Origin: a virus
DNA: 64,000 nt
Strand: one strand, 5' to 3'
Virus record (IMG/VR): IMGVR_UViG_3300028833_000003
Below the pieces are notes generated by a model that saw only the letters and a program-made list of their open reading frames with translations, was not told the origin of the DNA and searched no databases. The translations under genes and the position numbers were made by a program. Shown one piece after another: positions 1,481 to 64,000 of the stretch (position 1 is its first letter; every line of letters starts with the position of its first letter).

Positions 1481-2020
1481 ATGGCTGATGCTAGATTGAA
1501 GATTTTGCCGCCTTGGACAATTGTTATCCGTAAGTTTGAAGCATTGTTCGATGGTGATCCGTAGATTGCATGTAACTGTAACTTCGGCGGTTCTGCTCCA
1601 TCAATTGTATTTGCTTGCAATAACGGTGATAAGGTAGCTGCATTGCAGAAAATTCTTCCTGAGGAAATTAACTTTGGCAATGTCAAGCTCAAAGTAAAGG
1701 TTGATGGTATTCCTTCTAATCGTGCCTTCACCAGTAAGGTTGAACTATTTGATACTGCTTTCAAGGGCAATCCTGCTTATGCTTATTCTGTTTGCCCTGC
1801 TGAGGAAGGTTATCAGTGGATTGGAACAACTTATGTTGTATTCAATAACTGCGTAGTACAGTTCCCGGCTGACAATTTGAATGACTGTCATGGTATTATC
1901 AGTACTCTTTATGAGACTATTGCTGATGAACTTCTAACTGGTCCTGCTGTTCAAGGTGTATTCTTTAATACAAACGTTGAACGCGCTAACCTCGGTAAGC
2001 CGCTGGGTGAGTGGCCGTGA
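1481..2020 (+). CDS. Hypothetical protein (one in-frame TAG at 1562)
   Basis: ATG lies 8 nt after AAGGAGAG. It is in frame with track ORF 1643..2020 across a single TAG. The gene ends in TGA. It uses the AAG/CGT/GCT-rich codon regime shared with other probably highly expressed genes here. Confidence 0.7.
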
Positions 2021-2184
2021 TAGTTGAATTAACAAATCATTGGGTTGAAATGAGCGGCCAATATGAAATTGAAGGAGTAGAAGATCATAATGATTATTTC
2101 CGCTTCTACTTCGGCAATGGTAAGTGGTCAAGAGAGTATAATACATCAATGTACTCTTATAGGATTATACAAAAATGAATTGCG

Positions 2185-2210
2185 GTAATTACTCTTCGGA
2201 GATTACCTTT
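2185..2210 (+). terminator. Hairpin with UUCG loop followed by TTTAT
   Basis: GGTAAT..CTC-TTCG-GAG-ATTACC, then TTTAT. Confidence 0.4.
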
Positions 2211-2236
2211 ATAGGGTGGATGCGTCTGCCCTGTAT

Positions 2237-2311
2237 GCCCGATTAGCTCAACGGATAGAGCACGCGGCTACGGACCGCGGGATGTGGGTTCGATTCCTAC
2301 ATCGGGTGCCA
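2237..2311 (+). tRNA. tRNA-Arg(ACG)
   Basis: Acceptor GCCCGAT/ATCGGGT, anticodon arm CGCGG-CTACGGA-CCGCG, T arm GTGGG-TTCGATT-CCTAC, G73, CCA encoded. Confidence 0.9.
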
Positions 2312-2523
2312 CTTTAATCTAATCCACTCGATATGGCTGTGACTACAAAGCGCGGAAGAGTGGCGGTAGTATAACGCCTTAATTGGCTGAAACGATAGGC
2401 CGATTAAGGATGAAATAAAGCACCAGGATGCAAGAGAGTTATACACTACGTAAAACTTTAATATAGATGTGTGTAGTCGTGCTACCGGTGGCGCGTAACA
2501 ACATAATAGGACACCGGGTACTT

Positions 2524-2601
2524 CGGGATGTAGCACAGTCGGTTTAGTGCAGCGCTCTGATAAGGCGAAGATCACTGGTTCGAGTCCAGTCATCCCGACC
2601 A
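2524..2601 (+). tRNA. tRNA-Ile(GAT)
   Basis: Acceptor CGGGATG/CATCCCG, D arm GCAC-AGTCGGTTTA-GTGC, anticodon loop CTGATAA, T arm ACTGG-TTCGAGT-CCAGT, A73, CCA encoded. Confidence 0.85.
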
Positions 2602-2608
2602 TTTTTAT

Positions 2609-2682
2609 GTGCTATTAGCGTAATGGTAGCGTTGCTGCCTTCCAAGCAGCGGGTGTCAGTTCGAATCTGATATAGCACTCCA
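2609..2682 (+). tRNA. tRNA-Gly(TCC)
   Basis: Acceptor GTGCTAT/ATAGCAC, anticodon arm GCTGC-CTTCCAA-GCAGC, T arm GTCAG-TTCGAAT-CTGAT, U73, CCA encoded. Confidence 0.9.
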
Positions 2683-2787
2683 TGGCCGCAGACACGTCAG
2701 CAAACTGACTTAAATAATTACTGCTAATGTTGCTGTATCGTAAGCACCGGGTTCGGCTCCGGGAAGATAAGCGTGTCTAGTTTTTAT

Positions 2788-2863
2788 GCTCCCTTAGTCC
2801 AACGGCAGAGACAATGCGCTTAGAACGCATCCAGTGTGGGTTCGAATCCCATGGGGAGTACCA
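2788..2863 (+). tRNA. Type-I (short variable loop) tRNA with Leu-box anticodon UAG; identity unresolved
   Basis: Acceptor GCTCCCT/GGGGAGT, anticodon arm ATGCG-CTTAGAA-CGCAT (perfect 5 bp), 5-nt variable loop CCAGT, T arm GTGGG-TTCGAAT-CCCAT, A73, CCA encoded. It is a paralogue of the tRNA at 5016-5092. Confidence 0.75.
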
Positions 2864-2867
2864 ATAT

Positions 2868-2957
2868 GCGCTCGTGGCTGAGAGGTCGAAAGCGGTGCCC
2901 TGCTAAGGCATTGACTCTTTCCCGGGTCCGAAGGTTCGAATCCTTCCGAGCGCGCCA
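2868..2957 (+). tRNA. tRNA-Ser(GCT)
   Basis: Type II tRNA. Acceptor GCGCTCG/CGAGCGC, anticodon arm GTGCC-CTGCTAA-GGCAT, long variable arm, T arm GAAGG-TTCGAAT-CCTTC, G73, CCA encoded. Confidence 0.9.
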
Positions 2958-3027
2958 TTTTAAATTAATTCATCTATCTAAATCTTCATTATAAAATAGA
3001 ATCTCAATATTTCAAAGGGGGATTACT

Positions 3028-3828
3028 ATGTATAATGGATACAAAGAAATTCGTGGGACCACTGACGAAATTAATGAGCTAATGTTTCAAATGGATCCTG
3101 CGGATTGGGCAATCAATGAATATCTTATTATTCACAACACAGATGAAAATCGCACAACTGAAATGCGTTGGACTGGTTCGTAGTTTGTTGCATTAAAATT
3201 ACCGCCATCTTCATATGTAAAAGCACTCAATAGTGAGCAAAGATGTTTGTTGGATTTGCTTAATAATAAAAACATTACTGTTGTTGCTGCACTTGGAACT
3301 TATGGTTCTGGTAAAACTTATTTAGCTTTACAAATGGCACTTTACGGTTTAAAAGAAAAAGGATGGTATGATAAAATCCTTGGTGTGCGCGAAGTCATTG
3401 GTGAAGGTCGAGATATTGGTTTTTTGCCAGGTGAGTAGAAAGCTAAAACAGATAATTTCTTTAAACCGTTAGAACAATAGCTAAATGGTGGAGAGTTTGA
3501 ATTAGATAGCTTAGTGCGGCAAGGGCAATTAGAAACATAGATTCCTTATTTTTTAAAAGGCTGTACTTATAATCAGACTGCGATTGTCGTTGATGAAGCC
3601 GAGGACTTAACTGAAAAACAAATTAAGTTAATTGGTACTCGCGCTGGAAAAGGCAGTCGTGTTATTTTTGCCGGTGACTATAAACAATCATTAGTAAATC
3701 ACACTGAGTCCAATCCACTTGTTAAAATGTGTGATGCATTGCGCGGTAACCCTCTGTTTGGATGCGTAGTATTAAAAGAGGATGTCCGTAGCGAAACTTC
3801 TAAATTATTTGCTGACCTCTTCACTTGA
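3028..3828 (+). CDS. phoH: PhoH-like ATPase (four in-frame TAGs: 3181, 3436, 3478, 3538)
   Basis: Walker A GTYGSGKTY, the GFLPG motif and Walker B VVDEAED lie in one frame only if TAG is read through. ATG follows GGGGGA. The gene ends in TGA at 3826. Confidence 0.85.
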
Positions 3829-3853
3829 AAATTTTAAAAATTTTTGATATAAT
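3825..3853 (+). promoter_or_regulatory. Sigma70-like promoter cassette (TTGAAA-N17-TGaTATAAT)
   Basis: -35 at 3825-3830 and -10 at 3848-3853 with a TG extension. It is followed by the conserved ATATATAGAAAGTGAG leader. Confidence 0.75.
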
Positions 3854-3884
3854 ATATATAGAAAGTGAGAGGGAGGTAAGCCTT

Positions 3885-4052
3885 ATGACCTATGCTGAGT
3901 GTCCTTGGTATGATTGCTACGAATTGTGCGACGGTTGTCCTGAACGAATTGCTTGTAATGAGTATAGAGACTATGTTGATAATGGCGTATGTGAATTTGA
4001 GCATCGTGAGTATGGCGAAGAAGGCTATCCCGACATGGAAGAAGACGATTAA
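3885..4052 (+). CDS. Small Cys-rich acidic protein
   Basis: ATG lies 9 nt after GAGGGAGG, downstream of the promoter. MTYAECPWYDCYELCDGCPERIACNEY... The gene ends in TAA. Confidence 0.55.
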   Translation: MTYAECPWYDCYELCDGCPERIACNEYRDYVDNGVCEFEHREYGEEGYPDMEEDD

Positions 4053-4073
4053 AATCACAGGAGGAAGAGAGCC

Positions 4074-4373
4074 ATGAGCGATACTAAAAACACCTGTTCG
4101 CAGGATTGTTCTAAGACTTGTAAAAATTATTAGCCAGTTACTCCGTAGAAAGATAATTATGGATGGATTTGCGCGAAGTGTGGTCGTGGCATTGCGCCAA
4201 ATCAAATAACTTGTCCTTATTGCGGACCTACTTATACTTGGATTAGTACATCACCTTGGTGGAGCGGTCCATATTATACAACTACTAATGTTTCTAACAC
4301 TATTGATAAAGATAGTGTAACAGCAAGTGCGTCAAATATCACATTAAATGCTAATGCTACTACGCTAACTTGA
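4074..4373 (+). CDS. Zinc-ribbon protein (two in-frame TAGs: 4131, 4146)
   Basis: ATG follows GGAGGAAGAGAG. CAKCG...CPYCG ribbon. The frame is open to TGA at 4371 only if TAG is sense. Confidence 0.55.
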
Positions 4374-4398
4374 AAATTTTAAAAAAATTTGATATAAT
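4370..4398 (+). promoter_or_regulatory. Promoter cassette (TTGAAA-N17-TGaTATAAT)
   Basis: -35 at 4370-4375 and -10 at 4393-4398. Class B leader ATATATGTAAGATAAAGAAAAGGAG. Confidence 0.75.
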
Positions 4399-4430
4399 AT
4401 ATATGTAAGATAAAGAAAAGGAGAAATTAA

Positions 4431-4646
4431 ATGTATTATTACCTTGTAGATTTTCTTGATGAGGATTATAACGAGCATAAAGAATCTGGCCTAATTGGTG
4501 CTCAGTCTTATAGCACTGCTACTGCACAGGTTACTGATTTCTACGGTGAAGGTAATATTATTTCTCTTTATCTTGAACAGTGGAATGATGTTGTAACCGA
4601 GGATGAAGTTCTCGATGGCTTTGAAGAAGCCGATGTGAGGGTTTAA
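4431..4646 (+). CDS. Hypothetical acidic protein
   Basis: Track ORF. ATG lies 8 nt after AAGGAG. TAA stop sits inside a hairpin at 4635-4654. Confidence 0.6.
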   Translation: MYYYLVDFLDEDYNEHKESGLIGAQSYSTATAQVTDFYGEGNIISLYLEQWNDVVTEDEVLDGFEEADVRV

Positions 4647-4658
4647 TCCCTCACTTAT

Positions 4659-4742
4659 GCGGGTATGGTGGAATGGCAGACACCACAGACTTAAAATCTG
4701 TTGCCGCAAGGCGTGCCGGTTCAAGTCCGGCTACCCGCACCA
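4659..4742 (+). tRNA. tRNA-Leu(TAA)
   Basis: Type II tRNA. Acceptor GCGGGTA/TACCCGC, anticodon arm ACAGA-CTTAAAA-TCTGT, variable arm GCC-GCAA-GGC, A73, CCA encoded. Confidence 0.9.
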
Positions 4743-4814
4743 TTAAGGCTCACACAGCAAATTTTAATGCAATAGTATTGGTAAACTATAAGTGCAGGCG
4801 AGCCTTGTTTTTAT

Positions 4815-4896
4815 GCCCGAGTGGCGGAATGGCAGACGCGCTTGACTCAAAATCAAGTTCGAGAGAGTGTGGGTTCAAGTCCCACCTTGGGCACCA
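4815..4896 (+). tRNA. tRNA-Leu(CAA)
   Basis: Type II tRNA. Acceptor GCCCGAG/CTTGGGC, anticodon arm CTTGA-CTCAAAA-TCAAG, long variable arm, A73, CCA encoded. Confidence 0.9.
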
Positions 4897-5015
4897 GATT
4901 GTTGTCCGGCCGGCAACCCAGTGGATGGATTGTTACGCATCCCGTGCTACTACTGCGAGAGGGATCACGCTTAGGCTTTGCATGCGCACCACGGCCCATG
5001 AAGGTAGCACACTAT

Positions 5016-5092
5016 GCTCCCTTAGCCCAATTGGCAGAGGCAGTTGGCTAAGAACCAACACAGTGAGAGTTCGAATCTCTTGGGGAGTACCA
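5016..5092 (+). tRNA. Type-I tRNA with Leu-box anticodon AAG; identity unresolved
   Basis: Same acceptor GCTCCCT/GGGGAGT and A73-CCA as the tRNA at 2788. Anticodon arm GTTGG-CTAAGAA-CCAAC, 5-nt variable loop ACAGT, T arm GAGAG-TTCGAAT-CTCTT. Confidence 0.75.
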
Positions 5093-5566
5093 CCAGGGCA
5101 TGCCTGGTTTATATTGTCTAGCAACAAGGCAATCACACTGCAATGTTGTATGTAGGTAAATGATGGGGAGGAGTTAAAGGCGTCCTCTCTCTGGGGCAAT
5201 GCGGTAATACCTGCGCGCGGGTAGCAAAGTTACCCTACCAGTAGTTAGAAGTCTGTAAAACTTCCATTGGGCTGGCTGAGAGGCCCTGGTCCATCTTCCT
5301 TGCCAACAGTGATAGTCCTGTTTAAGGCAAAAAACATGCGGGTTAGCTAAACGCGATGATGGCTAGTTTTAGGGTTTTACGCCACGCTTTTAAGGACTTT
5401 GGCATTGATAAGCAAATTTGCTTGTCTATACTAGTTAATGCCGCAGTTCTAATTTGTCTGCACACTCGATTGGTAGTGTCCCACAAAAAAACTTGTTGAA
5501 GAGTGAAGTTGGTGGTTTTAGCTCTTAAAAAATATCTTATATGCGCTAAGATAAGGGCGCTTAATA
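5093..5566 (+). ncRNA. Candidate structured non-coding RNA (~470 nt) between the tRNA array and the next gene
   Basis: No credible ORF on either strand even with TAG read through. The track ORFs here run through tRNAs. The region is GC-enriched and hairpin-rich. It begins with CCAGG-GCATG-CCTGG. It shares ATGCGGTAAT and GCGCGC strings with 1-645. Confidence 0.4.
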
Positions 5567-5587
5567 GTGAAGGAGAGGAACTTAACT

Positions 5588-5902
5588 ATGAAATTTTTTT
5601 CTGAGGTAACGAATAGGGTTTATGATTCTGTTGATGCACTTAACGCCGCCGAAAAAAAGGTAGCCGATGAGAAGCGTGCTCGTGAGGAAGCCGAAGCTAA
5701 GAAAAAGGAAACTCGTGAAGCCCGCGCAAAGGAAGTTGAAGCTGCCCTTGAACTTGCTTCCAAGACTCGCTCAGATGCTTTGGAGAAGTTGAATGCTTTT
5801 GTGAAGGACTATGGTGCCTTCCATACTTCCATCAAGAATGTTGATTCACTGTTTGGATCAGAGCATGCATTGAGTACCCTGTTTGATCTGTTCAACTATT
5901 GA
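5588..5902 (+). CDS. Lys/Glu/Ala-rich coiled-coil protein
   Basis: ATG lies 9 nt after GAAGGAGAGG and is internal to track ORF 5567. It uses the AAG-rich codon regime. TGA stop, then a terminator. Confidence 0.6.
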   Translation: MKFFSEVTNRVYDSVDALNAAEKKVADEKRAREEAEAKKKETREARAKEVEAALELASKTRSDALEKLNAFVKDYGAFHTSIKNVDSLFGSEHALSTLFDLFNY

Positions 5903-5914
5903 TTAGATGCCTCT

Positions 5915-5939
5915 GGCGGCAGGCAAAAAGCCGCCTTTA
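5915..5939 (+). terminator. Rho-independent terminator-like hairpin
   Basis: GGCGGC-AGGCAAAAA-GCCGCC followed by TTTAT. Confidence 0.5.
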
Positions 5940-5942
5940 TAT

Positions 5943-6018
5943 GGGGATGTAGCTCAGTTGGTAGAGCGCCTGCCTTGCAAGCAGGAGGTAGAGGGTTCGA
6001 TCCCCTTCATCTCCACCA
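5943..6018 (+). tRNA. tRNA-Ala(TGC)
   Basis: Acceptor GGGGATG/CATCTCC with G3-U70, anticodon arm CCTGC-CTTGCAA-GCAGG, A73, CCA encoded. Confidence 0.9.
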
Positions 6019-6019
6019 G

Positions 6020-6136
6020 AAGACCTGTCAGCAATTATCTTTTTGCATTAGGAGCACGGGGTTCCAGGTTCGAATCCTGGGTCGGGGATTATTCCCCGGC
6101 TAGCTCAACTGGTAGAGCACGTTATTAGCGGGTCTT
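6020..6136 (+). ncRNA. Circularly permuted tRNA-like module (YrlA/Y-RNA-like candidate 1)
   Basis: Order of elements: closing helix AAGACC (6020-6025) with GGTCTT (6131-6136); T arm CCAGG-TTCGAAT-CCTGG (6064-6080); capped acceptor helix GTCGGGG (6081-6087), loop ATTATT, CCCCGGC (6094-6100); TA; D arm GCTC-AACTGGTA-GAGC (6103-6118). Confidence 0.5.
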
Positions 6137-6170
6137 GTATTTTAAAAGTATCAAAAGGAGAGGTTACACT

Positions 6171-6593
6171 ATGAGGAAAGTAATTAGTTTAATAATGGTG
6201 ATGCTTATGTTATTCTTGCCATTAACAAGTTAGGCATCTTGTGCATCCCCATCTGTCGAATCTTTGGTTTCATTTACACCTAAAATTAGCTGGCAATACG
6301 CCACAGAAGATAGTTTGTTTAGCAAATTTTATCCTGAGTGGGTAGATACATTCTTATTCAGGTCTGAGTGGAAAATTATAGACGCATTTGAAATTAGTCT
6401 GCAAGCACCGCATCGTCTTGTTACTATGTATTGGGCGGTAATGCCAGAGAATGTAAAAGATTTCGGTGTCTTGTTTGTGGGTAATAACCAGTTCATCTTG
6501 CGCTCTGCGTTTGTATATGATGAAACCCATCTTATGATTAATTTCACAAATGTATTACCTGGCGATTATCTTATGGTAATAGTTGCGCGATAA
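6171..6593 (+). CDS. Secreted protein with N-terminal signal peptide (one in-frame TAG at 6231)
   Basis: ATG lies 9 nt after AGGAGAGG. MRKVISLIMVMLMLFLPLTS-TAG-ASCASPS... It is in frame with track ORF 6264..6593 and ends in TAA. Confidence 0.6.
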
Positions 6594-6608
6594 TTTTCGC
6601 GCATAAAT

Positions 6609-6682
6609 GCGGCTATAGTATAGTGGTAATACGCGGCCTTGCCAAGGCTGAATCACGGGTTCAAATCCCGTTAGCCGCTCCA
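6609..6682 (+). tRNA. tRNA-Gly(GCC)
   Basis: Acceptor GCGGCTA/TAGCCGC, anticodon arm CGGCC-TTGCCAA-GGCTG, T arm ACGGG-TTCAAAT-CCCGT, U73, CCA encoded. Confidence 0.9.
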
Positions 6683-6686
6683 TTCA

Positions 6687-6719
6687 ATAGACCTGTTCAT
6701 ACAACAGGTCTATATTTTA
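6687..6719 (+). terminator. Strong hairpin followed by a T-run, inside the tRNA array
   Basis: ATAGACCTGTT-CATAC-AACAGGTCTAT, then ATTTTAT. Confidence 0.6.
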
Positions 6720-6720
6720 T

Positions 6721-6796
6721 GCGCGTGTAGCTCAGTCGGTAGAGCACGTGACTTTTAATCACGGCGTCGGGAGTTCGATCCTCCCCACGCGCACCA
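6721..6796 (+). tRNA. tRNA-Lys(TTT)
   Basis: Acceptor GCGCGTG/CACGCGC, anticodon arm CGTGA-CTTTTAA-TCACG, T arm GGGAG-TTCGATC-CTCCC, A73, CCA encoded. Confidence 0.9.
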
Positions 6797-6799
6797 TAT

Positions 6800-6874
6800 G
6801 GCTTGGTAGCTGAGACGGATTAGCAGCGGACTGAAAATCCGCATAGGTTGGATCGTTACCAACCCAAGCCACCA
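6800..6874 (+). tRNA. tRNA-Phe(GAA) with an unusual T loop (A54/U58)
   Basis: Acceptor GGCTTGG/CCAAGCC, anticodon arm GCGGA-CTGAAAA-TCCGC, T arm GTTGG-ATCGTTA-CCAAC, A73, CCA encoded. Confidence 0.85.
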
Positions 6875-6967
6875 GGGAGTCGGGAAGCTGTGTCATTAGT
6901 ATCACGTGCTACGGTGACAATGCAGTGAAACAATTGCGCATAATACCGAATAGAGACACTCCCACCA
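6875..6967 (+). ncRNA. Structured spacer RNA closed by an acceptor-like helix and ending in ACCA
   Basis: GGGAGT (6875-6880) pairs with ACTCCC (6958-6963), followed by ACCA (6964-6967). Internal hairpins are TGTCA...TGACA and GCAGT-GAAACA-ATTGC. No D or T arm consensus is present. Confidence 0.35.
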
Positions 6968-6995
6968 TTTTAAATAATCAATAGGAGGCCATTCT

Positions 6996-7205
6996 ATGAG
7001 TTTTAAAGACGCCTATAAAGCCATGCGTGAAGGTAAAGCTATTTCTAATACTGAGCATCCTGATGATCAGTGGGTTTGGAAGAATGACTAGATGATTTTC
7101 CAAAGTGGTGATGGCATTAGCTATCCGGTTAATGATATGCTATCTATTGAATATCTCCTCGATTAGATTGTACAAGATATTTGGTTTGTTGTAGAAGAAG
7201 AATAA
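6996..7205 (+). CDS. Small DUF2829-like protein (two in-frame TAGs: 7089, 7164)
   Basis: ATG lies 8 nt after AGGAGG. MSFKDAYKAMREGKAI...W...DIWFVV recalls the DUF2829 pattern (F..A...m..GK...W ... D.W). The family assignment is from memory only. Confidence 0.5.
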
Positions 7206-7217
7206 ACTTCTTCTTAT

Positions 7218-7292
7218 GTGGAGTGTCGTCTAATGGTAAGACAGCAGATTGTGGCTCTGCGAACGCAGGTTCGATTCCTGTCATTCCACCCA
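7218..7292 (+). tRNA. tRNA-His(GTG)
   Basis: G-1 opposite C73, acceptor TGGAGTG/CATTCCA, anticodon arm GCAGA-TTGTGGC-TCTGC, CCA encoded. Confidence 0.9.
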
Positions 7293-7365
7293 GCTAGCGG
7301 TGAGGGCAATTGACGAATGGGGCTAGCGGAATCCGCACGCGACGTCGGTAAAAAAGCTCCTATAT

Positions 7366-7440
7366 GCGCTGAACCCTCGTCGGTCGGGGAGAGGTCTGCA
7401 AAACCTCTGTTAGTGGGTTCAACTCCCACTCAGCGCTCCA
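7366..7440 (+). tRNA. tRNA-Cys(GCA)
   Basis: Acceptor GCGCTGA/TCAGCGC, anticodon arm GAGGT-CTGCAAA-ACCTC, T arm GTGGG-TTCAACT-CCCAC, U73, CCA encoded. Confidence 0.9.
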
Positions 7441-7456
7441 ATTAAAGAGGGGAGCG

Positions 7457-8140
7457 ATGCATATGTTATTAAGAAAAGGAATGCGTGGAGAATCGGTTCG
7501 ATAGTTACAAACACGTTTAACTGAATTAGGTTTCCTCAATAGTAAGATTGATGGAGTATTTGGTCCAGTAACTTAGAACGCAGTTATGAATTTTCAAATG
7601 CAAGCAAATTTAGGAGTTGATGGTATTGTTGGTCCAAAAACAGAAGCAGCATTAAATGATGTGAATGCGCCGCATTATGTTATACCAACTTCAACTGCGG
7701 TTCCTGCTACTGGCACTGCGCAAATGATGGATTGGTGGAAAAGTGATATTTCTAAAATCTTTGCGCGTGGTGTAGTGGCAACTATTACAGATGTAGATAC
7801 TGGCTTAGCTTGGCACGAAGTACGTAAAGGCGGCTCTAACCACGCTGACGTTCAACCATGTACTGCCGCAGATACTGCTGTATTGAAATAGGCTTATGGT
7901 GGAAAATGGTCATGGGCTAGACGCGCAATTTTTGTAACGATCAATGGTGTTAATTATGCCGCATCAATGAATGGGATGCCACACAGCGGACAATCTATTT
8001 TAGATAATAATTTCCCTGGACATCATTGTATCCACTTTACTAATAGCCGCACACATAATACAAATAAAGTGTGTCCAGACCATCGTAAAGCTATTGAAAA
8101 AGCAGCAAAAGCAAATTTAGGTGATAATTCGGTGGGTTAA
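7457..8140 (+). CDS. Peptidoglycan-binding (PG_binding_1-like) protein with an uncharacterised C-terminal domain (three in-frame TAGs: 7502, 7574, 7889)
   Basis: G..V.-TAG-LQ..L..LGF....DG.FG..T-TAG-.AV..FQ....L..DG.VG..T matches the PG_binding_1 repeat pattern. The frame is open from ATG 7457 to TAA 8138 only if TAG is sense. Confidence 0.75.
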
Positions 8141-8153
8141 TTAACCCACTTTA
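8132..8153 (+). terminator. Palindromic hairpin overlapping the stop codon
   Basis: GTGGGTTAA/TTAACCCAC followed by TTTAT. Confidence 0.45.
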
Positions 8154-8154
8154 T

Positions 8155-8229
8155 AGGGGAATGGTGTAATTGGCAGCATGTCGGTCTCCAAAACCGCTGG
8201 TCTAGGTTCGAGTCCTAGTTCCCCTGCCA
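8155..8229 (+). tRNA. tRNA-Trp(CCA)
   Basis: Acceptor AGGGGAA/TTCCCCT, anticodon loop CTCCAAA, T arm CTAGG-TTCGAGT-CCTAG, G73, CCA encoded. Confidence 0.9.
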
Positions 8230-8233
8230 TTAT

Positions 8234-8308
8234 GCGGGTATAGTTCAACGGATAGAATAACAGACTTCTAATCTGTACATCAGGGTTCAATTCCCTGTAC
8301 CCGTACCA
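8234..8308 (+). tRNA. tRNA-Arg(TCT)
   Basis: Acceptor GCGGGTA/TACCCGT, anticodon arm ACAGA-CTTCTAA-TCTGT, T arm CAGGG-TTCAATT-CCCTG, A73, CCA encoded. Confidence 0.9.
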
Positions 8309-8309
8309 G

Positions 8310-8338
8310 TTGATTTTTTTAAAAATTTTTGATATAAT
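8310..8338 (+). promoter_or_regulatory. Promoter cassette (TTGATT-N17-TGaTATAAT)
   Basis: -35 at 8310-8315 and -10 at 8333-8338. Class B leader ATATATGTAAGATAAAGAAAGG. Confidence 0.75.
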
Positions 8339-8375
8339 ATATATGTAAGATAAAGAAAGGAAGGGCAAACAGTAA

Positions 8376-8714
8376 ATGAAAATTACTCTGTTTGTGGATG
8401 ATGAACGCAGACCTCACAGAGAAGATGCGCATAGTTGGATACTTGTTAGAACTGGTAAGCTTGCAATTGATTTACTTGATGCTCTTCGTAAAATTAATTC
8501 TAAGAATGTTTTTGATATATATCTTGACCATGACCTTGGCTCTGGCATAAGCGGTTATGATGTAGCAAAATATATTGTAGATAACAATATCACAGAAGTG
8601 CAACATGTATATGTAATAAGTATGAATCCAGTTGGTGCGCAGAATATTTGTGATTTGCTTAATCATTACGGTTGGTCGGCAAAGCGAGTGGGGCTAGATG
8701 TTATTGGATTATAA
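8376..8714 (+). CDS. Receiver-like domain protein resembling the cyclic-phosphate-processing REC (cREC) domain of RNA-repair systems
   Basis: MKITLFVDDERRP...WILVRT...AIDLL......IYLDHDLG...SGYDVAKYIV......VYVISMNPVG..NI matches the remembered cREC pattern. No TAG. It runs directly into the suppressor tRNA. Confidence 0.55.
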   Translation: MKITLFVDDERRPHREDAHSWILVRTGKLAIDLLDALRKINSKNVFDIYLDHDLGSGISGYDVAKYIVDNNITEVQHVYVISMNPVGAQNICDLLNHYGWSAKRVGLDVIGL

Positions 8715-8807
8715 AGCCCCTTAGTTCAACGGTAGAACACCGGTCTCTAAAACCGTTATATCCCTCTGAAGGAGGTAGTCTGGGTTCGAATCCCAGAGGG
8801 GCCGCCA
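8715..8807 (+). tRNA. Amber-suppressor tRNA, anticodon CUA, with a long (23-nt) variable region
   Basis: Acceptor AGCCCCT/AGGGGCC (A1-C72 mismatch, then 6 bp), U8, D arm GTTC-AACGGTA-GAAC, anticodon stem CGGT/ACCG with loop CTCTAAA, variable region 8757-8779 with a CCTC/GAGG stem, T arm CTGGG-TTCGAAT-CCCAG, G73, CCA encoded. Confidence 0.8.
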
Positions 8808-8811
8808 ATCA

Positions 8812-8921: not shown

Positions 8922-8932
8922 GTAAATTTTTA

Positions 8933-9839: not shown

Positions 9840-9852
9840 GGAGATGAAAAAG

Positions 9853-56343: not shown

Positions 56344-56366
56344 AGTGCGCCATCACTCCTTATAAA

Positions 56367-56705
56367 TTATTCACCATCATCTGCGTCTAAATCTTCACTA
56401 GAAGAAAAATTAACATACATTTCAAAATTGTCTCCACCATTGTATGTTTCTTGAATAGATGTAATTCTACCTTGAACATCATTTAAATCATAAATATTAT
56501 TACCACTATCACCTTTAATAGTAATACGAGAAACAGTCTGTGGCATTAAAGTATTCAAGAAAGTGGCGGTACTTGCACCAGGAACCAAACTAATATAAGC
56601 ATTGCTTACTAAATCATTCTGTTCCTTGTCATATGTAGTAGTACGACTATAATTTACGAGTTGAATAGCATGAGCTGCGTCACTATTAAAAATAATTGTT
56701 GCCAT
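56367..56705 (-). CDS. Hypothetical protein with an acidic C-terminus
   Basis: ATG lies 8 nt after AAGGAGG and is internal to track ORF 56367..56753. No TAG. Confidence 0.55.
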   Translation of the reverse strand: MATIIFNSDAAHAIQLVNYSRTTTYDKEQNDLVSNAYISLVPGASTATFLNTLMPQTVSRITIKGDSGNNIYDLNDVQGRITSIQETYNGGDNFEMYVNFSSSEDLDADDGE

Positions 56706-56718
56706 TAAAATGACCTCC

Positions 56719-57702
56719 TTATAAATTACCAAATAATAGTATATAACTATCATCTATTGTATTTATATCAGTAGCGCTCGCCCAGCACCATACTGACATA
56801 ATCGCATTAAATAACATATCTTTATTTGTCTATGTTATCTAATTATCTTTAAGTAATTGGCCTACTCTTTTATCAAAATTTGACCGTAAAATTTTTTCAT
56901 CATAACCATCTTTATTTTTTCGCATCTAACAATCCCATAATTTTCCATCACAATCAATAGTGAATGAATCAATGCCTGCCATACAATGCGGAGTTTGTTT
57001 AGGTACTTCTATGGTTCCAAACCATTTATAATAATTCTCTGCATCATAACCGAAATAACGACCAGGCACTTCAATGGTCGGCTTTGCACCGATATCATCA
57101 ATATTAATATATGGTCTTTTTTCTACTAAAGGTATCATTTTATCATGTAATTCCTACGCCCATGCATACCAAACTGTAGAGTCGGTGCGCAAATTAATTT
57201 TAGTTAATGTCGATTTAGTAGATATTTTTAACTAAAAATTATTGGTCGGCATTTTCGTTGGGCAAGAATAAATTAAATGCTCTAGCGCGCGGATTGAATT
57301 TTTATACGCACCTTTCTAACGATTAAAATCATTCATATCTTCTGGACCATCAATATTAAATTGGATATGTAATGTTACATCATATGATAATAATGGCATG
57401 ACGAAATAACGGTATAATTCTGATGTACCGTTTGTAGAAAACATAATATTTTTGATTTGCGGCCATCGCTTTAAAATTGCAGTAATCATTGCTGAAAAAT
57501 ATGGTCCATTAAGTGATGGCTCCATTCCCCATAATCCAATACTGGTAGTTTCTGGGGTGATAGTTTCAAGAATGGTTTTTGTAAATGAACCATTCTTGAA
57601 ACACTCCTAAATGCGTTTATTATCATGCTCTTGATATTGCATACAACAATAAGCACATTTTAAATTACATGCATCGGAAAAATAAATGTTAAGATTTTTC
57701 AT
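56719..57702 (-). CDS. Radical-SAM enzyme with a Twitch/partial-SPASM C-terminal motif (seven in-frame TAGs)
   Basis: N-terminal CNLKCAYC (Cx3Cx2C) at residues 12-19. HCMAGIDSFTIDCDGKLWDC equals C-x12-G-x4-C. Track ORFs 57316 and 56926 share the frame with ATG 57702. 'cta' at 57607, 57316, 57232, 57154, 56926, 56839 and 56830. TAA at 56719. Confidence 0.75.
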
Positions 57703-57793
57703 CTTTTATTTGCACTCCACATAAAGCATTACATAAAACATTACAAAACGAAGTTTCTGTAATATTTTGATTATTATCTTCTTGCCAACGCAT
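57689..57793 (-). CDS. 34-codon Cys-x3-Cys-x3-Cys peptide ORF, translationally coupled to the radical-SAM gene (candidate precursor peptide)
   Basis: MRWQEDNNQNITETSFCNVLCNALCGVQIKDEKS. ATG lies 8 nt after AAGGTG. Its TAA lies 11 nt downstream of the radical-SAM ATG, giving a 14-nt overlap. No TAG. Confidence 0.45.
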   Translation of the reverse strand: MRWQEDNNQNITETSFCNVLCNALCGVQIKDEKS

Positions 57794-57795
57794 TT

Positions 57796-60700
57796 TTATT
57801 TCACCTTAATCCATATTCTATTATTTACAGGAACTGCCTTTTCACCCCAAATTGTGTATTCAGGTACTTCACTAACATAGCCTATAATACAATCAGGATA
57901 CTAAACAATCTCTTCTCTTGTCATAATATCTATCGTACCATTAGGAGCAGCACATACTGCCATACCAGCGTGATAATTTGTTCTATCTTGATATGTATAT
58001 ACTAGAACACGACCAGCAACAGCCACTGGTGTTTTAGCCGTTTCAGTTTCACCTTGCGCAAAACCATAGGTATCAGATACAATAGAAGCGCCTGGTATTA
58101 GACGTTCTTCTGTACGAGTCATAATACCATTGTCATTTTCTTGTACGCAACGTCCAGCTTCTAATTCTGTCGTGCAACGATATTCCGCATAGTCATTCCA
58201 AGCAGCGCCCATTAAAACGCCAGCAGATAAATCAGAATAAATTGCACTACTGCCCAAATATAAACATGCTTTACTACTAGCATTAGCACGCCAAATTATA
58301 GCATCTGTAGTTGGATTTGCAGAAGGACCTGTAAAAACTAATTGTTTTCCTCTTCCAACTGTTATATTTTCAGTTGATGTAATACCAGCTGCCGTTAAAG
58401 CACCTGCAGATGATATATATGCACCTGCTGAAGCACATGGTACAATATTAGTTTGCTCTGCACTACCGCTTGGTGTGGTAGGCGTACCCAATAAATACGC
58501 TGTCCAAGTTGGTGATGTGGCAACTTTAACATTAACAAATTTATCAGTAGTAGTTATCTATGCCCATGTTGGCTCACCACTACCATTTGATTTTAAATAA
58601 TAGTTCTTAGTACCAGCACTAGTAGGAGCGTAGAAACTAGCTGATGTAGTTGCTGTACCATTTAATGTGACAGTACTTCCATCGCCCCATTCAGGCACAC
58701 TAGCACCCATTTTTAAGAATTTACCAGCCGCACCTTTACCTAAACGTGTTGGTGTATTAGCAGCAGACCAATAAATTATATCACCTGCGTGAGTACCAAT
58801 AGATTTAGGAATTGCATAGTCAGAAAAATTTAACTAATCTAATACATTAACCCAACCGCCATTAGTAGTGCTATTTTGAAGAGCACCACCTGCTACGCGT
58901 TTATAATAAATACCATTTGCATTAAATGGAATTGCGAGGTCAGTATAATAACCAGAATTATTTGCATGATTACATCTAATAATATGAGTCCAAGTAGCAC
59001 TAGAAAATGGAGTATCATTTACTTTAACTGCTCCCTATCTAGCAGCACTAATATTGAAATATTGTAAGCCATTCCAACCATAGTCCATACGTGTATTGCT
59101 ACTTAATTGCGTTGATGTAGTTGCAGTTGTAGCATTACCAGACAAAGTACCAGTAATTGTGTATCCACCAGTAATTGTTTTAGCATATGGATCAATAACT
59201 AATGCAGTACCGACACCAGTTTTTGTCGTTCCATCAGCAGATGCAATACCAAAAATACGGAAATTACTATTTAAATTATCTAAAACAATACCCGCTTTTG
59301 TTGTTGCATTTGCGGCAGCACATAAATGAAGTTCTCCACCTTCGCCAGAGCCATCTGGTTTAATATCTATAGTACCATTGAAATAGCTTGGTCCAGCAAC
59401 AGTTAAGTTATATGATGAATTAAAGTTACTATTAACAGCCAATCGAGAAGTAGCTTTAATACCATTGGTTCTAAAAGCGGCGCCTCTACTTTCAGATGTT
59501 ATAAGTCCAATAGTAAAATCAAATAATGAATCTGCTGAAGTATTATATCTGTCACCAATAAAATATGCTTTTTGGCTACCATCATTAAAAATTAATTTTG
59601 GGCCACCTAATGATTCATTATAAGCCGCTGTTGCACCTGTATCTGATCCAGAGACAGTTCCAGTTATCATAACATTGCCATTAAATGTAGTACCAAGTGT
59701 ATTATAGTCTATTGATATTGCATTTTTTGAATATGTAGTTTGCGCAGATGTAGTATAATTAGTATTAAACTATAATAAACCAGATGTATTCAAAATCTAC
59801 CAAGACGCACTAGAATTACGATAAAACTCAAGACCTACGGCAGCTGTTCCAGCACCTTTTAAAACTAATTTACCAGTTTGCGTAGTAGTAGATGAATTAT
59901 CTGCACCATCAATTAATAAACCAGTGGTTGTTGCAGTAATGCGCGCGCTATAATCAGCAGTGCTAGTATTTGTTGCGTGGAAATCAATATATTTACCAAT
60001 TTCCATTACACCATCAGAGCCAATTAATGGCGTACCTCTAAAATAAGCACCAGCTGCTGGGGCTAAATTAGATCTATAATTACTTAAACCAAGAATGGTC
60101 GCTCCGTTGGTTTCATCTAAAATGCGGCGCCAAGATTGCCAAGTGCCATTATTTTTACCGCGCACACTTAACTGTCCAGTTCGATAATCCTAAAAAATTT
60201 CTGTTATCCAAGAATTATTATACCACTGTGAAATTAATGCACCATCTGTCTATTGATAATTCCAAGCAGCTTTAGTCAAGCCAGATACATAGCCTAGTGC
60301 ATTAGTGCCAGGGCCATTACCATCAATACCAAGATTTGTGCTTGTGGTAACTTTAAAATTAGTTAAATTAGATGCGGTGGTAGAAGTATCAGAACTATTA
60401 GCATGATTAACTGTGCCACCATCTACTGCAACAGTTACATCATCATATGCAATCGCTCCAATACTTGTAGTAACATCAGGATAAACTTCAATAGATGTTT
60501 TTTTATCATCCGCTGTTGTATTATTTACTTCCGTACTTGCAAGCAATGTCCATGCATAATTAGCACCTTCTAATAAGTATGCATATGCACGCATATAAGT
60601 ACCACATTTTACATACACATCACATTGCGCAGATTGACCAGAAGCACCTTTACGAGCAATTCTAACATCACCAACTGCAAAACCATAACGCACTATCCAA

Positions 60701-63700
60701 GTAGCGCTTACTGAAGTTGCTGCTGGCGGGTCTGCACTAGCATTATTAGCACGAGCAGAAATTTTAATAACGCCGTATTTACCACCAGAGTATCGAGAAT
60801 GTATAAATAAAATTGCATCTCTATCAACATATGAACCAGTTCCTAAATTAGTAGTAGCTACACGATGCCAAGGATAATGATTAGTATTACCAGAATTAAC
60901 AGTAACATAATTATGATACCAAGTTAATGCTGTTGGAGTACCATTATTAAGATAAATACCTCTACACTCACTGCCAACTGTTGTTGTACCTAATTTAGAT
61001 GCTGCACCAGTCAAATTACCAACAAAACCATTAGTTGCAGTTACGCTGCCTGGGAAAGTGCTATTACCACTAGTATCAAATAATTTAATTTCTTTAGCAA
61101 CTATATTAGAAGTATTGTAACGTCTAACTACAATCTATTCGTTATTACCATCATCGCCAACAGCAATTTCTAATAAACCAGCATTCGCGGTTTCTTCTAA
61201 ATGACGAATCCAACCAGCATCATTATTTCCATTACCATTTAATGGGTCAGCAAATGCAATAGCGTTACTATAAATAAATACACCACGCTTATTACTATTA
61301 TAAGGTAGTTTATCTGGCATACCAGATGTAAGAGCCATACGAATATGGTTTCCTCCCGCTGCGGAACCACCTTGTACCCACAACCCACCTGTCTAAATCG
61401 TTGTTGCACCATTGATAAATAAAACACTACCATCTGTTTGTTCTGCGTGCTAACCAATTGTTAATTTAGGTACTGATATACGCACACCAGTTGCAAGCGT
61501 AGTTCCAGTTGGAGCATGCAAACGTATATTACCTTCTGAATTATAAGACTTAGCATTGTCAGTAACACCAATGTAACAATAGCTTAAACTATTTGCAGAA
61601 CCAAAATTACCAAAATTACTTAAAATAGATGTTTTATCATTTTTATAAGCATCAAATACTGTCCAAGCCCAACCGCCACCGCCATCTTTAACACGAGAAC
61701 TAAAAAATTGACTAGTATTTTCTGAGCCATAAAACTAAGATGTACCTAAAGTTTTATAAGTTTCGCTTAAATCCCCAACATATGATGCGGCAATAGCAGA
61801 ACCGTGCCAAGTACCAGCAGTAATAGTACCAACTTTTGTAATTTCAGTTAAATTTTTTTCTGTTATAATTCTATAATTCTTATTAGCAGTCAAACCAGTA
61901 GCAACTGTTGGTAAATAATATGTTTCATAATAACCGGTAGTAGTAGTCGTAGCAGGATTATTAGGACTATATTGACGCCAATTCCATATGCCTGTTGTTA
62001 CATTAGTTGCATCACCTACATCATACCAGGTTTCAGCTACTCTATTAAGAGCATTATTTCGTAATACTATATCTTTGATATAACGAGAAGTCGAACCCCA
62101 ATAACCATATCCACGTACATCTAGTACATAGTTACCAACTAACGGTGCCATAGTAGTAATAGCATTATCTTGATTAATTGTAAATAAAGCATTTGATTTA
62201 GTTGAGCCATGATTATGCAACCAAATGCCTCGATTACCAGTATCTGTCCCAGCACTATATAAATAAATGTCACCAGCATTGCTTTGTGCTTTTACATTAA
62301 TTTCTTTGCCTGATGTTGTTCTACCAGCAACAATATGAGAATTAGTATGTATTTGTTTTGTTACGCCTAAACCGCCACCAATACGAACTGCCCCGTTATT
62401 ATAGTCAGTAGCATCTTGAGTATATTGTATATTGACTATATTACCCGCTGTGGCATCACCATAGCCCATAATAATCGGGCCACCGTTTATATTTAAATAT
62501 AGTCCTTGTTCTGATTCATTAACTTCAGTTCCACGATTACCATCTGAATCACAACCAGAAATTCCACGGACAATTAAAGCATTTGAACCAGCAGAACCAA
62601 TAATATGCACACTGCCAGTTAAATACGATGCCGCGCCAGTGGCAATACCACCACCAACTACTAATGCGCCAGTTGTAGAAGAAGTTGATGCCGTAGTGGC
62701 TTTAATTTTTACTGTACCCGCTTTATTAATTGTTAATAATCCATTATTACCATAAAGCCCTAATCCAACTGCATTTTCTGCATTGTTAGAACCATAATAA
62801 TGGAACTCAAGTACTGCCTAATTATTAGAACCATTACTCACACCTGTCATTAAGCATGTGTTACCACCGCTAGCTAAATTAGGAACTAAATGATTAATAC
62901 CCCAAGAATAAGTACCACTTTTCACCACAGTTGCTGGCGCGTTTGAGGTTAAATTAATCATACCTTTTGCGGCACTATCTGTGGCATTTGGATTATATTC
63001 TACTGTAGTTTGACCAGTGAATAACGCTCCGCCATTTTCATAAAAACGAATTTGTGCATCTGTTCTTGCAGTTGTACCATTATAAGTTGTATCTTTAACA
63101 TAACTAAATAATAAATCATCTGTATATGAAGAATCTGTATAGGAACCAATTTCCCAAGATCCATTACTAGTTTTTGTTGATACTACTGGTGAATAACCAG
63201 GAATTGAAGTTATTGCAATCAAAGCATTATCTCTGCCTTTATGCCAAGAAGATGCAATACCAGCTCTTGTAATAATATGACTTGTAATAAATTTAGAACC
63301 ATCCCAAGTTAAAGAACCACCTGATAACTTATTCGTTTGATTATAGGTAGTAAATAGTAATCGAGTATTACCATTTAAACCCTAAATTGCTAATGTCCCC
63401 GCGCTATTGACGTCACCCATTTGGGCATCATCACCGACTTTATTCCATGTGTTATTAGCGAAATTCAATGCGCCGGTCATAGTCCCGCCAGCCAATGGTA
63501 AATATTTATTAACTCCTAATGCGGTAATCATATTGGCCTTACTAACCCAGTAAGTTTTGCCACCATTTGCAAATGAATCAATCGCAAGAAAAAATTCTGC
63601 GGCGCTACCTTTTTCTGGTAATGCTACATTATCTTTCCAGCTTAATGGCGCGGTCATCTAACCGCCTTCTATAATTTGCGGTTTAAGAGTAGTAGTATAG

Positions 63701-63756
63701 AGCGTATCAGTTACTCTGGCGCTCCCTTGTATCAATGTATCTTTTAATTGTGCCAA
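57796..63756 (-). CDS. Giant tail fibre (1,986 codons, 15 in-frame TAGs)
   Basis: TTG start lies 7 nt after AAGGAGG (MAQLKDTLIQGSARVTDTLY...). Eight track ORFs (63382, 62818, 61735, 61135, 60250, 59797, 59035, 57901) share one frame and are separated only by TAG. Composition is Gly/Ser/Thr/Asn-rich with repeated G.AGKFL...P.W-type motifs. TAA at 57796. Confidence 0.75.
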
Positions 63757-63768
63757 TGTAATTCCTCC

Positions 63769-64000
63769 TTAACGCTCTATAAATTGTGTAGCATTAACAC
63801 TAAACATTTTTTTACTTATTTGCGCAGGTTTATTTAAATCTTCTTCTGTTTCAGTAAAATGAGAAGCTTCAAATATACCTGTTCTTTTTATTTGTGGTTT
63901 AAACTCATTGTCAGCAATATACCACTATAAATGCCGTACTTTCCATGTAACTGGATTAGACTATCCGTTGGTTACTAGCCCTAAACTTGAATAGTCTCTG
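63769..64000 (-). CDS. 3' end of an upstream structural gene (partial, two in-frame TAGs)
   Basis: The frame is open from the window edge to TAA 63769-63771, with 'cta' at 63961 and 63925. It lies directly upstream of the tail-fibre RBS. Confidence 0.5.

Follow-up and report, generated by a model that had tools for sequence, protein, structure and literature searches.

In-frame TAG codons, very probably read as glutamine, and a suppressor tRNA with a glutamine anticodon loop in its extra arm in a metagenomic phage

The 64,000-nucleotide stretch of viral DNA analyzed here (IMG/VR virus record IMGVR_UViG_3300028833_000003), referred to below as the window, carries an array of tRNA genes scattered among small open reading frames (ORFs), a long block of RNA repair and DNA replication genes, a short run of nucleotide metabolism genes and, on the opposite strand, a tail fiber and lysis block (Table 1). 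Its G+C content is 37.9%. Many of the genes contain in-frame TAG triplets, and the array includes a suppressor tRNA gene with the anticodon CUA and a long variable region. An initial annotation, made from the sequence alone, had proposed that TAG is a sense codon in this phage. Taken together, the sequence comparisons described below make it very probable that UAG is a glutamine codon (code 15), that termination is by UAA and UGA only and that the phage encodes its own decoder, the tRNA(CUA). Recoding of this kind is already known in gut and rumen phages, because Phass-1 and other code-15 phages have been published, and the window is a further case. The assignment of TAG to glutamine is in this respect ordinary and matters mainly for correct annotation; what appears to be new is the extra arm of the suppressor tRNA, which holds a glutamine loop.

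ORFs were re-called with each stop codon allowed in turn as a sense codon, and non-overlapping coverage of the window by ORFs of ≥60 amino acids was compared. Coverage was 0.755 under code 11, 0.786 with TGA as sense (code 4) and 0.879 with TAG as sense (code 15); from code 11 to code 15 the mean ORF lengthened from 196 to 268 amino acids and the longest from 1292 to 1986. On this ORF coverage measure, which is particular to the present analysis, the rise reaches the gain in coding density of at least 5 to 10% under code 15 by which recoded phages have been recognized (Borges preprint, 10.1101/2021.08.26.457843; Kienbeck 2024, PMC10879173). The only stop codon found in frame inside the genes was TAG (TAA 0, TGA 0). 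The 74 called ORFs ended in TAA (54) or TGA (20) and never in TAG, in agreement with the initial annotation, and two dubious small ORFs (6996-7205 and 8915-9076) are undecidable in this respect: a terminator role of TAG is possible there, because the last TAG lies only 13 codons upstream of the stop. A conservative count, restricted to genes backed by homology or length, gave 65 in-frame TAGs in 17 genes, and a liberal ORF call on the dominant strand gave 83 in 27 of 74 ORFs. The earlier total of about 74 TAGs in 23 genes falls between the two, and the counts given for individual genes (PhoH, NrdD, the NCS2 permease, dUTPase, the RuvC-like resolvase, the endolysin, the radical-SAM protein and the tail fiber) all agreed with those in Table 1, and the TAG placed at nucleotide 49637 is indeed the second one of nrdD.

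Profile searches, which had been proposed as a check along with the comparison of codes, were equally in favor of translation through TAG. Single unbroken Pfam matches cross the TAGs in the PhoH-like ATPase (profile positions 2-200 of 205), NrdD (NRDD, 2-562 of 562), the permease (Xan_ur_permease, 8-385 of 389) and the PG_binding_1 protein (1-57 of 57), and the ATP-cone, SpoIID, NlpC/P60 and Radical_SAM domains were likewise matched across TAGs as single stretches. The NrdD of PDB 8p23 aligns across the TAGs over residues 5-741 of 745, PDB 3b85 does so with PhoH, and alignments of the tail fiber with its homologues in the related contigs L001 and L077 continue through the last TAG, at codon 1952. 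When 15 window genes were set against 12 related contigs, TAG sites were kept as TAG in 25 pairs. Under code 11, about one-third of the genes are broken, as had been claimed (TAG occurs in the 27 ORFs of the liberal call), including those for the endolysin, tail fiber, NrdD and PhoH, and any functional or host range analysis of this phage needs code 15.

The TAGs are unevenly distributed. The TAG share, TAG/(TAG + CAA + CAG), was 0.017 in the RNA repair and replication block versus 0.322 in the late block of tail fiber and lysis genes (Fisher p = 2.6e-19; other regions in Table 1), and off-frame TAG triplets are common in every region (14 to 23 per 1000). Within the approximately 10,000 codons of the replication block there are 350 CAA or CAG codons and at most six TAGs, none of them beyond codon 53 of the three ORFs, of uncertain start, that contain them. 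By PHROGs annotation, the products of the block include topoisomerase II, DNA ligase, helicases, primase, RecJ and Pol III alpha. In the relative L001, the genes for Pol III alpha and NrdG likewise lack TAG. Inside the block, an ORF with a GIY-YIG domain (homing endonuclease-like; 32830-33837) has three TAGs, and since all are within its first 53 codons, the true start may be downstream of them.

Separation of recoded codons between early and late genes is known from other phages (Yutin 2021, PMC7886860; Borges preprint, 10.1101/2021.08.26.457843). As the RNA repair and replication genes avoid TAG, they would be translatable in an unmodified host that uses the standard code, whichever host this is. 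PhoH, the nucleotide metabolism genes, the resolvase and, above all, the tail fiber and lysis genes, with TAG at up to one-third of glutamine positions, would be produced at full length only after the suppressor tRNA is present and charged. Following the published model, late gene expression would in this way be tied to the code change. The TAG distribution supports, without proving, the idea that translation of late genes becomes possible only when the suppressor is active. The window is also one more clear example of replication genes that suit the host code alongside lysis and structural genes that do not, which supports a role for the code change in timing late expression.

Because the long variable arm of the tRNA hints at serine, leucine or tyrosine, the reading of TAG as glutamine was put to the test. 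Glutamine at the TAG columns of endolysin homologues in a large protein collection was dropped as evidence: the contigs of the closest relatives do not give those proteins under table 11, the collection had itself read TAG as Q and the argument is circular. The comparison was therefore made at the DNA level, codon by codon, between the 15 window genes and the 12 contigs, namely, L002 (97% identical), L001 and L078 (about 70%), L077 (about 50%) and eight IMG/VR loci that share orf1481 or PhoH. Where the partner of TAG was a codon other than TAG, it encoded glutamine in 43 of 125 pairs (CAA 22, CAG 21), glutamate in 14, alanine in 13, lysine in 7 and tryptophan in none; in genes at least 60% identical, glutamine accounted for 23 of 39. 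In a conditional likelihood based on BLOSUM62, glutamine ranked first at TAG sites, followed by glutamate (behind by 20.6 to 44.6 natural-log units), with larger deficits for serine (45 to 75), tyrosine (55 to 118), leucine (62 to 129) and tryptophan (72 to 168). Five changes at TAG sites separate the window from its 97% relative, four of them to or from CAG (three) or CAA (one) and one involving GAA. Codon 151 of PhoH faces CAG or CAA in three of three relatives. A check independent of phages came from the endolysin, in which TAG codon 79 aligns with the glutamine of a conserved Q-x-Y motif in Bacillus anthracis SpoIID (PDB 4rwr). Alignments of PhoH and NrdD with PDB structures were also considered as a guide to the amino acid and were uninformative, because the TAGs there occupy variable columns (L/A/A, R/F and E/A/A). 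The earlier placement of this phage in the code-15-like class, with TAG as glutamine, is upheld by the likelihood ranking, the partner counts and the SpoIID match.

The suppressor tRNA was located by both ARAGORN and the Rfam tRNA model at the position where the initial annotation had placed it; its length of 93 nucleotides and long extra arm had gone unremarked there. It has an A1·C72 mismatch, G73, G10 and U35, so that the tRNA-Gln identity elements of a weak first pair, G73, G10 and U35 are all present. Its 5' half is closest to that of E. coli tRNA-Trp with C35U (score 24 to 25, with a reference sequence verified against 5426 genomes); in the same alignment, no window tRNA scored above 16, and E. 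coli tRNA-Gln2 scored 4. GC is never found at pair 1:72 across the suppressor family, where UA (9), A·C (7), U·U (5) and AU (5) occur, and all 28 of 28 have G at position 73. Both tRNA-Gln and tRNA-Trp likewise combine a weak 1:72 pair with G73. The closest known counterpart of this body is the E. coli suppressor su+7, which, in work by Yaniv, Folk, Berg and Soll from 1974, was reportedly a tRNA-Trp with the anticodon CUA that is charged mainly with glutamine. The acceptor, D and anticodon arms of the window tRNA are near E. coli tRNA-Trp with C35U, and it resembles su+7 also in its weak or mismatched 1:72 pair and G73; unlike the window tRNA, su+7 is a class I tRNA of 76 nucleotides without an extra arm, and its identity is ambiguous between glutamine and tryptophan.

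In the extra arm of the window tRNA, seven base pairs form a helix with imperfections (UAUAUCC/GGAGGUA), among them a conserved A·G, and this helix closes the 7-nucleotide loop CUCUGAA (8764-8770). At the center of the loop is CUG (8766-8768), an anticodon for glutamine. In a manual table of 25 variants, the inner pairs of the arm covary: pair 2 is C-G in 17, U-A in 4, G-C in 3 and A-U in 1, and pair 3 is U-A in 13, C-G in 4 and U-G in 3. Next come the conserved A·G and then U·G and A-U. A covariance model with the arm structure was also built and the sequences were realigned to it; such an alignment leans to the structure of its model, and the manual table agrees with it. In the covariance model alignment, 92.7% of cells were paired, compared with 75.0% after shuffling (none of 500 shuffles reached the observed value) and 34 to 53% with slid partners. 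The arm helix alone was 91% paired, and in four of its six pairs both partners vary. Thermodynamics favors another fold of the arm, in which a 5-bp stem carries a GAA triloop; it was rejected because compensatory changes contradict it and fit the register with the 7-nucleotide loop.

The loop is strongly conserved. In 31 distinct sequences its positions are C29, U30, C23/U8, U31, G30, A29 and A29, i.e., CU[C/U]UGAA, which about 30 of the 31 display, and the sole frequent variation, C or U at the position equivalent to 34, gives CUG or UUG, both of which are glutamine anticodons. Genuine tRNA-Gln genes in the same loci have the matching anticodon loops CUCUGAA, CUUUGAA and CUUUGAC. From the arm through the following 3 to 5 nucleotides to the T arm, the layout resembles that of the 3' half in a real tRNA-Gln(CUG), and a pattern made from this whole stretch retrieves tRNA-Gln(CUG) and otherwise CUA suppressors only. 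A search of IMG/VR with the 16-nucleotide anticodon arm found 70 tRNA(CUA) genes, of which 45 are 86 to 95 nucleotides long and approximately 39 have a variable region of the window type. A second scan of IMG/VR, in which only the two loop sequences were fixed, added 33 loci with 24 distinct tRNAs, including ten other anticodon stems and other D arms. The window-type arm is present in approximately 55 distinct suppressor sequences from IMG/VR and in phage Phass-1, where it went unmentioned in the published description (Babkin et al. 2023, PMC10607447). Among representative bacterial genomes, the extra-arm tRNA occurs on four contigs of metagenome-assembled genomes only, all of them phage-like, and these give no clue to the host. 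In the searches made here, the arm was not seen on a tRNA with any anticodon other than CUA. No description of it in natural tRNAs was found in full-text literature searches and in the main papers on recoded phages, which is not proof of novelty.

Several related loci are of interest in their own right. A tRNA(CUA) at L076:7800-7891 has a Trp-like D arm, G73 and the extra arm GAGGU[GUCCAAA]GCCUC, whose loop holds the tryptophan anticodon CCA. It may be an amber suppressor of tryptophan identity built on the same principle; an IMG/VR pattern scan for a CUA anticodon loop together with a UCCAAA arm loop gave chance hits only besides L076, leaving the tryptophan case at n = 1. In L070 (IMGVR_UViG_3300021400_000485) and L048, the suppressor tRNA is identical to that of the window or differs by 1 nucleotide, and as it sits there in almost unrelated flanking DNA, the gene appears to move between phage genomes. 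In eight other IMG/VR loci (L079, L080, L082, L083, L225, L227, L241 and L251), the extra-arm suppressor gene is split in the anticodon loop after CUCU, by inserts of about 175 nucleotides in L079 and L083 and by inserts with Rfam group I intron matches in L080 and L082 (50.5 and 46 bits). The exons in L083 are identical to the window tRNA. Splicing of such split genes could be an extra control on suppressor availability. The conserved protein encoded by orf1481 is found, with 63 to 93% amino acid identity, in at least seven IMG/VR loci with extra-arm suppressor tRNAs, always within tRNA arrays.

The anticodon, including G36, is reportedly read by GlnRS, as Jahn, Rogers and Söll are said to have found in 1991. 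GlnRS and nondiscriminating GluRS both read the anticodon including G36 (Giegé and Eriani 2023), and for this reason a tRNA with the anticodon CUA is a poorer and more ambiguous substrate for glutamine. How host synthetases charge phage suppressors with glutamine was left open in the Borges preprint (10.1101/2021.08.26.457843). A tentative explanation, somewhat less likely than not to be correct, is that the arm is a glutamine pseudo-anticodon acting as an identity element. The host GlnRS, or a nondiscriminating GluRS (in the GluRS/GatCAB pathway), would recognize the pseudo-anticodon through its anticodon-binding domain. The Trp-like body with C35U, the weak 1:72 pair with G73 and the arm with the glutamine loop would together let the tRNA accept glutamine, and the arm would turn a Trp-like CUA tRNA into an efficient and unambiguous glutamine acceptor. 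The anticodon would thereby be changed and the amino acid kept, with the variable region holding the cognate anticodon stem-loop once more, in a copy that takes no part in decoding. The two hairpins may swap places stacked under the D stem, with one presented to the synthetase and the other to the ribosome. The CCA loop of L076 gives a hint that further identities may be specified in the same way.

An anticodon arm mimic exists in the E. coli thrS operator and offers a likeness to the arm of the window tRNA. A closer one is synthetic: a histidine anticodon loop was placed in the variable arm of amber suppressor allo-tRNAs, and changing its GUG to GAG abolished histidine insertion (Mukai 2020, PMC7590224). 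Like the window tRNA, those constructs are amber suppressors in which a 7-nucleotide loop at the end of the variable arm bears the anticodon of the desired amino acid; they differ in their 9/3 allo-tRNA scaffold and in the use of HisRS, and they had a modest effect that depended in part on the addition of an anticodon-binding domain, whereas the window arm occurs in nature, on a 7/5 tRNA, and its anticodon is that of glutamine. The extra-arm tRNA provides a hypothesis for the charging of phage suppressors with glutamine that can be tested by mutation. If the proposal is correct, the arm represents a new natural tRNA architecture and a design principle for efficient, identity-locked suppressors in genetic code engineering.

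Other readings of the codon, of the tRNA and of the arm have to be weighed against these. If the TAGs were real stops, in pseudogenes, split genes or assembly errors, or were pyrrolysine codons, fragmentation of ORFs under code 11 would be expected, and ARAGORN does label the tRNA as “tRNA-Pyl”. This has next to no probability, since the label rests on the anticodon alone, the tRNA lacks tRNA-Pyl hallmarks (its D loop is a normal one of 7 nucleotides with GG, AACGGUA, and its variable region has 23 nucleotides, not 3), the in-frame TAGs (at least 65) are unaccompanied by TAA or TGA, relatives preserve TAG opposite TAG and domains run on past the TAGs in the same frame; no pyl genes were found among the scanned ORFs of the window. 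The variable region of 23 nucleotides, in a tRNA of 93, is a hallmark of class II tRNAs such as the suppressors supD (serine) and supF (tyrosine); it belongs to the sole tRNA(CUA) of the window, ARAGORN found no tRNA-Tyr there, and true tRNA-Ser-like CUA suppressors occur in other IMG/VR phages, e.g., L020. Decoding of TAG as serine, leucine or tyrosine is nevertheless highly improbable, not only because of the likelihood deficits of all three but also because tRNA-Ser requires G1-C72 and G2-C71 and the family never has G-C at 1:72, because leucine and tyrosine tRNAs carry A73 where the suppressors have G73, and because an arm with a 7-nucleotide anticodon-like loop and a conserved internal A·G is unlike the arms of these tRNAs. 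Glutamate would be inserted if a nondiscriminating GluRS charged the tRNA and amidation failed, and tryptophan if TrpRS still recognized a body whose 5' half is closest to tRNA-Trp; E. coli su+7 is reportedly charged by both GlnRS and TrpRS. For phage suppressor tRNA genes, a tryptophan isotype has been predicted in 19% and a glutamine isotype in 69% (Kienbeck 2024, PMC10879173). Reading of TAG as glutamate or tryptophan, or as an ambiguous mixture, is still quite unlikely, as both amino acids trail glutamine in likelihood, tryptophan never faces TAG, Q-E exchange is expected at true glutamine sites under BLOSUM62, and the exchanges between TAG and CAA in the 97% relative fit synonymous change. 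A number of observations count against glutamine or against the timing model. The assignment is comparative only, and the codon pairs behind it are partly nonindependent, one window site being set against several relatives; many TAGs lie at variable columns, with L, A, E or R in PDB homologues, and glutamate is the second commonest partner. The tRNA has A at position 36 where tRNA-Gln has G36 and shows a YUG triplet in the extra-arm loop only; it is more Trp-like than Gln-like in body and resembles class II tRNAs in length. Some genes with TAG, such as those for PhoH, NrdD and the permease, are not clearly late ones, so that the timing model is only approximate, and no gene for a release factor, aminoacyl-tRNA synthetase or amidotransferase was found among the scanned window ORFs.

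For the arm, the main alternative, only slightly less probable than the pseudo-anticodon, is that it has no role in identity and either was left over from duplication of, or recombination with, a tRNA-Gln(CUG) gene or is structural in a generic way and might serve, for example, stability, ribosome binding, processing or evasion of nucleases. The layout shared with the 3' half of tRNA-Gln(CUG) fits duplication or recombination, many recoded phages manage with an ordinary 75-nucleotide tRNA(CUA), sometimes adjoining an extra-arm gene, and the tryptophan counterpart was found only once. The main physical objection to a pseudo-anticodon is that the tip of a variable arm is far from the CCA end (Mukai 2020, PMC7590224). 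Several observations count against this alternative. The loop stayed the same as compensatory changes accumulated in the stems of the acceptor, the D and T arms and the extra arm (20 acceptor variants and four pair types at arm pair 2), its only common change, at the 34 equivalent, converts one glutamine anticodon into another, the arm was seen on CUA tRNAs only, and an engineered pseudo-anticodon in the variable arm does affect the charging of amber suppressors (Mukai 2020, PMC7590224).

Table 1. Features and regions of the window, with TAG counts per gene and TAG shares per region
Feature	Position	Strand	Details
Array of 25 tRNA genes among small ORFs, including the suppressor tRNA	646-10630	+	
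tRNA array region	1481-14884		TAG share 27.5%
Conserved ORF (orf1481), 179 amino acids	1481-2020	+	1 TAG (codon 28); CAG in 6 of 7 related loci
PhoH-like ATPase	3028-3828	+	4 TAGs (codons 52, 137, 151, 171); Pfam PhoH over residues 64-261 in one stretch
PG_binding_1 domain protein	7457-8140	+	3 TAGs; Pfam match at residues 10-66 covers 2 TAGs
Suppressor tRNA(CUA), 93 nucleotides	8715-8807	+	Anticodon CTA at 8747-8749; CCA encoded; ARAGORN, Rfam tRNA (55.8 bits)
Extra (variable region) arm of suppressor tRNA, 21 nucleotides	8757-8777	+	Covariance model, manual pair table
ORF of no assigned function, 380 amino acids	11338-12480	+	5 TAGs
ORF, 128 amino acids, signal peptide-like N terminus	12575-12961	+	1 TAG (codon 28); in conservative set of 17
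Nucleoside 2-deoxyribosyltransferase	13047-13607	+	1 TAG within domain (Pfam)
NCS2 (xanthine/uracil) permease	13598-14884	+	2 TAGs; Pfam match at residues 22-398 (profile 8-385 of 389)
RNA repair and DNA replication block	14987-47579	+	Essentially TAG-free; TAG share 1.7%
Nucleotide metabolism and resolvase region	47648-53038		TAG share 11%
Anaerobic ribonucleotide reductase NrdD	47648-49885	+	2 TAGs (codons 55, 664); codon 664 is CAG/CAA in relatives
ORF, 159 amino acids	50419-50898	+	1 TAG (codon 41); GAG in the 70% relative L001; in conservative set of 17
dUTPase	51408-52010	+	1 TAG
RuvC-like resolvase	52003-52491	+	4 TAGs; 79% identical to L001 gene with RuvC Pfam match
Protein of 180 amino acids with transmembrane segment, possible lysis regulator	52496-53038	+	2 TAGs
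Tail fiber and lysis block	53088-63999	-	TAG share 32%
Endolysin (SpoIID + NlpC/P60 + SH3)	53765-55210	-	6 TAGs
ORF, 386 amino acids	55183-56343	-	7 TAGs
Radical-SAM/Fer4_12 protein	56719-57702	-	7 TAGs
Tail fiber-like protein, 1986 amino acids	57796-63756	-	15 TAGs; L001 homologue with weak Gp34_trimer match

The window probably derives from a large, low-GC tailed phage of the rumen or gut with a host among the Firmicutes, distantly related to Phass-1 and to Enterococcus and SPbeta-like phages. Megablast of 22 kb of the window against INPHARED gave no match. Pol III alpha is 37% identical to that of Enterococcus phages (VRE9, EF1), phage Phass-1 and SPbeta-like phages, closer relatives are unannotated metagenomic contigs of 140 to 176 kb (Logan, ENA), and the radical-SAM protein has no relative in IMG/VR. 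The domain composition of the endolysin points to a Gram-positive host, and matches to “cow-rumen” RNAs in the window and related loci, some of them below threshold, suggest a rumen origin.

Recoding of TAG to glutamine in phages was reportedly described by Ivanova in 2014. Phages with code 15 are now known from the crAss-like, Lak, Agate, Garnet and related clades (Yutin 2021, PMC7886860; Borges preprint, 10.1101/2021.08.26.457843), with proteomic proof (Peters 2022, PMC9523058). The window resembles them in its in-frame TAGs in conserved genes, the absence of TAG as a stop, low G+C content and a tRNA(CUA) of its own, as well as in the concentration of recoded codons among genes for structure and lysis and their absence from early genes. 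It differs in belonging to another lineage, in having TAG also in nucleotide metabolism genes and in that no “code-change module” with RF2 or an aminoacyl-tRNA synthetase was seen among the scanned ORFs. The nearest published parallel is Phass-1 (OQ749652, “Caudoviricetes code 15 clade”; Babkin et al. 2023, PMC10607447), like the window a large Firmicutes-type phage with many tRNAs. About 28% of the Phass-1 ORFs contain TAG, those for dUTPase and lysis proteins among them, and the phage has NrdD/NrdG and Pol III alpha. Its 91-nucleotide extra-arm tRNA-Sup-CTA is 91% identical to the window tRNA over positions 14-83. In Phass-1, however, this gene is one of a suppressor pair (75 and 91 nucleotides) adjoining nrdD, whereas the window has the extra-arm type only, within the tRNA array, and the identity of the Pol III alpha proteins is low. 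Suppressor tRNAs associated with theta (HDV-like) ribozymes (Kienbeck 2024, PMC10879173) are similar in that a tRNA(CUA) lies in the tRNA array of code-15 gut and rumen phages. No HDV-like Rfam family was detected next to the window suppressor (scan of positions 1-11000 at E ≤ 1 with Rfam models, not the published RNArobo descriptor), and in loci related to the window group I introns interrupt the suppressor instead.

Genes for RNA repair accompany the tRNAs. A protein with a cREC_REC cyclic phosphate-processing domain is encoded immediately upstream of the suppressor tRNA (8376-8714), and an RlaP nucleotidyltransferase, an RNA ligase, a polynucleotide kinase and two phosphoesterases are encoded within 14987-23390. 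The whole set is free of TAG and is plausibly a counter to host defenses that cleave tRNA. Sub-threshold matches to the Rfam family YrlA (Y RNA-like) lie at 8826-8932 (32.4 bits), where the full model is matched directly downstream of the suppressor tRNA, and at 6056-6125 (35.7 bits); a similar match occurs in L079. Together with a DUF2828/DUF7788 protein encoded at 14987-16519, these may form a Ro/Y RNA-type module.

The array contains further unusual RNAs. Two tRNAs with leucine anticodons, UAG and AAG (2788-2863 and 5016-5092), are 76 to 77 nucleotides long with a 5-nucleotide variable loop and A73 and are without the usual long arm of bacterial tRNA-Leu; similar short “Leu” tRNAs recur in related IMG/VR loci. 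An Rfam “cow-rumen-3” match at 5165-5295 (42 bits, E = 7e-7) is below the gathering score. In the related loci there are cow-rumen-3, cow-rumen-4, ROOL and skipping-rope RNAs, and these would be structured RNAs carried by phages. Between tRNA-Thr and tRNA-Ser(UGA), a weak partial match to the tRNA model (10459-10521; 26.4 bits, below threshold) may represent a decayed tRNA gene.

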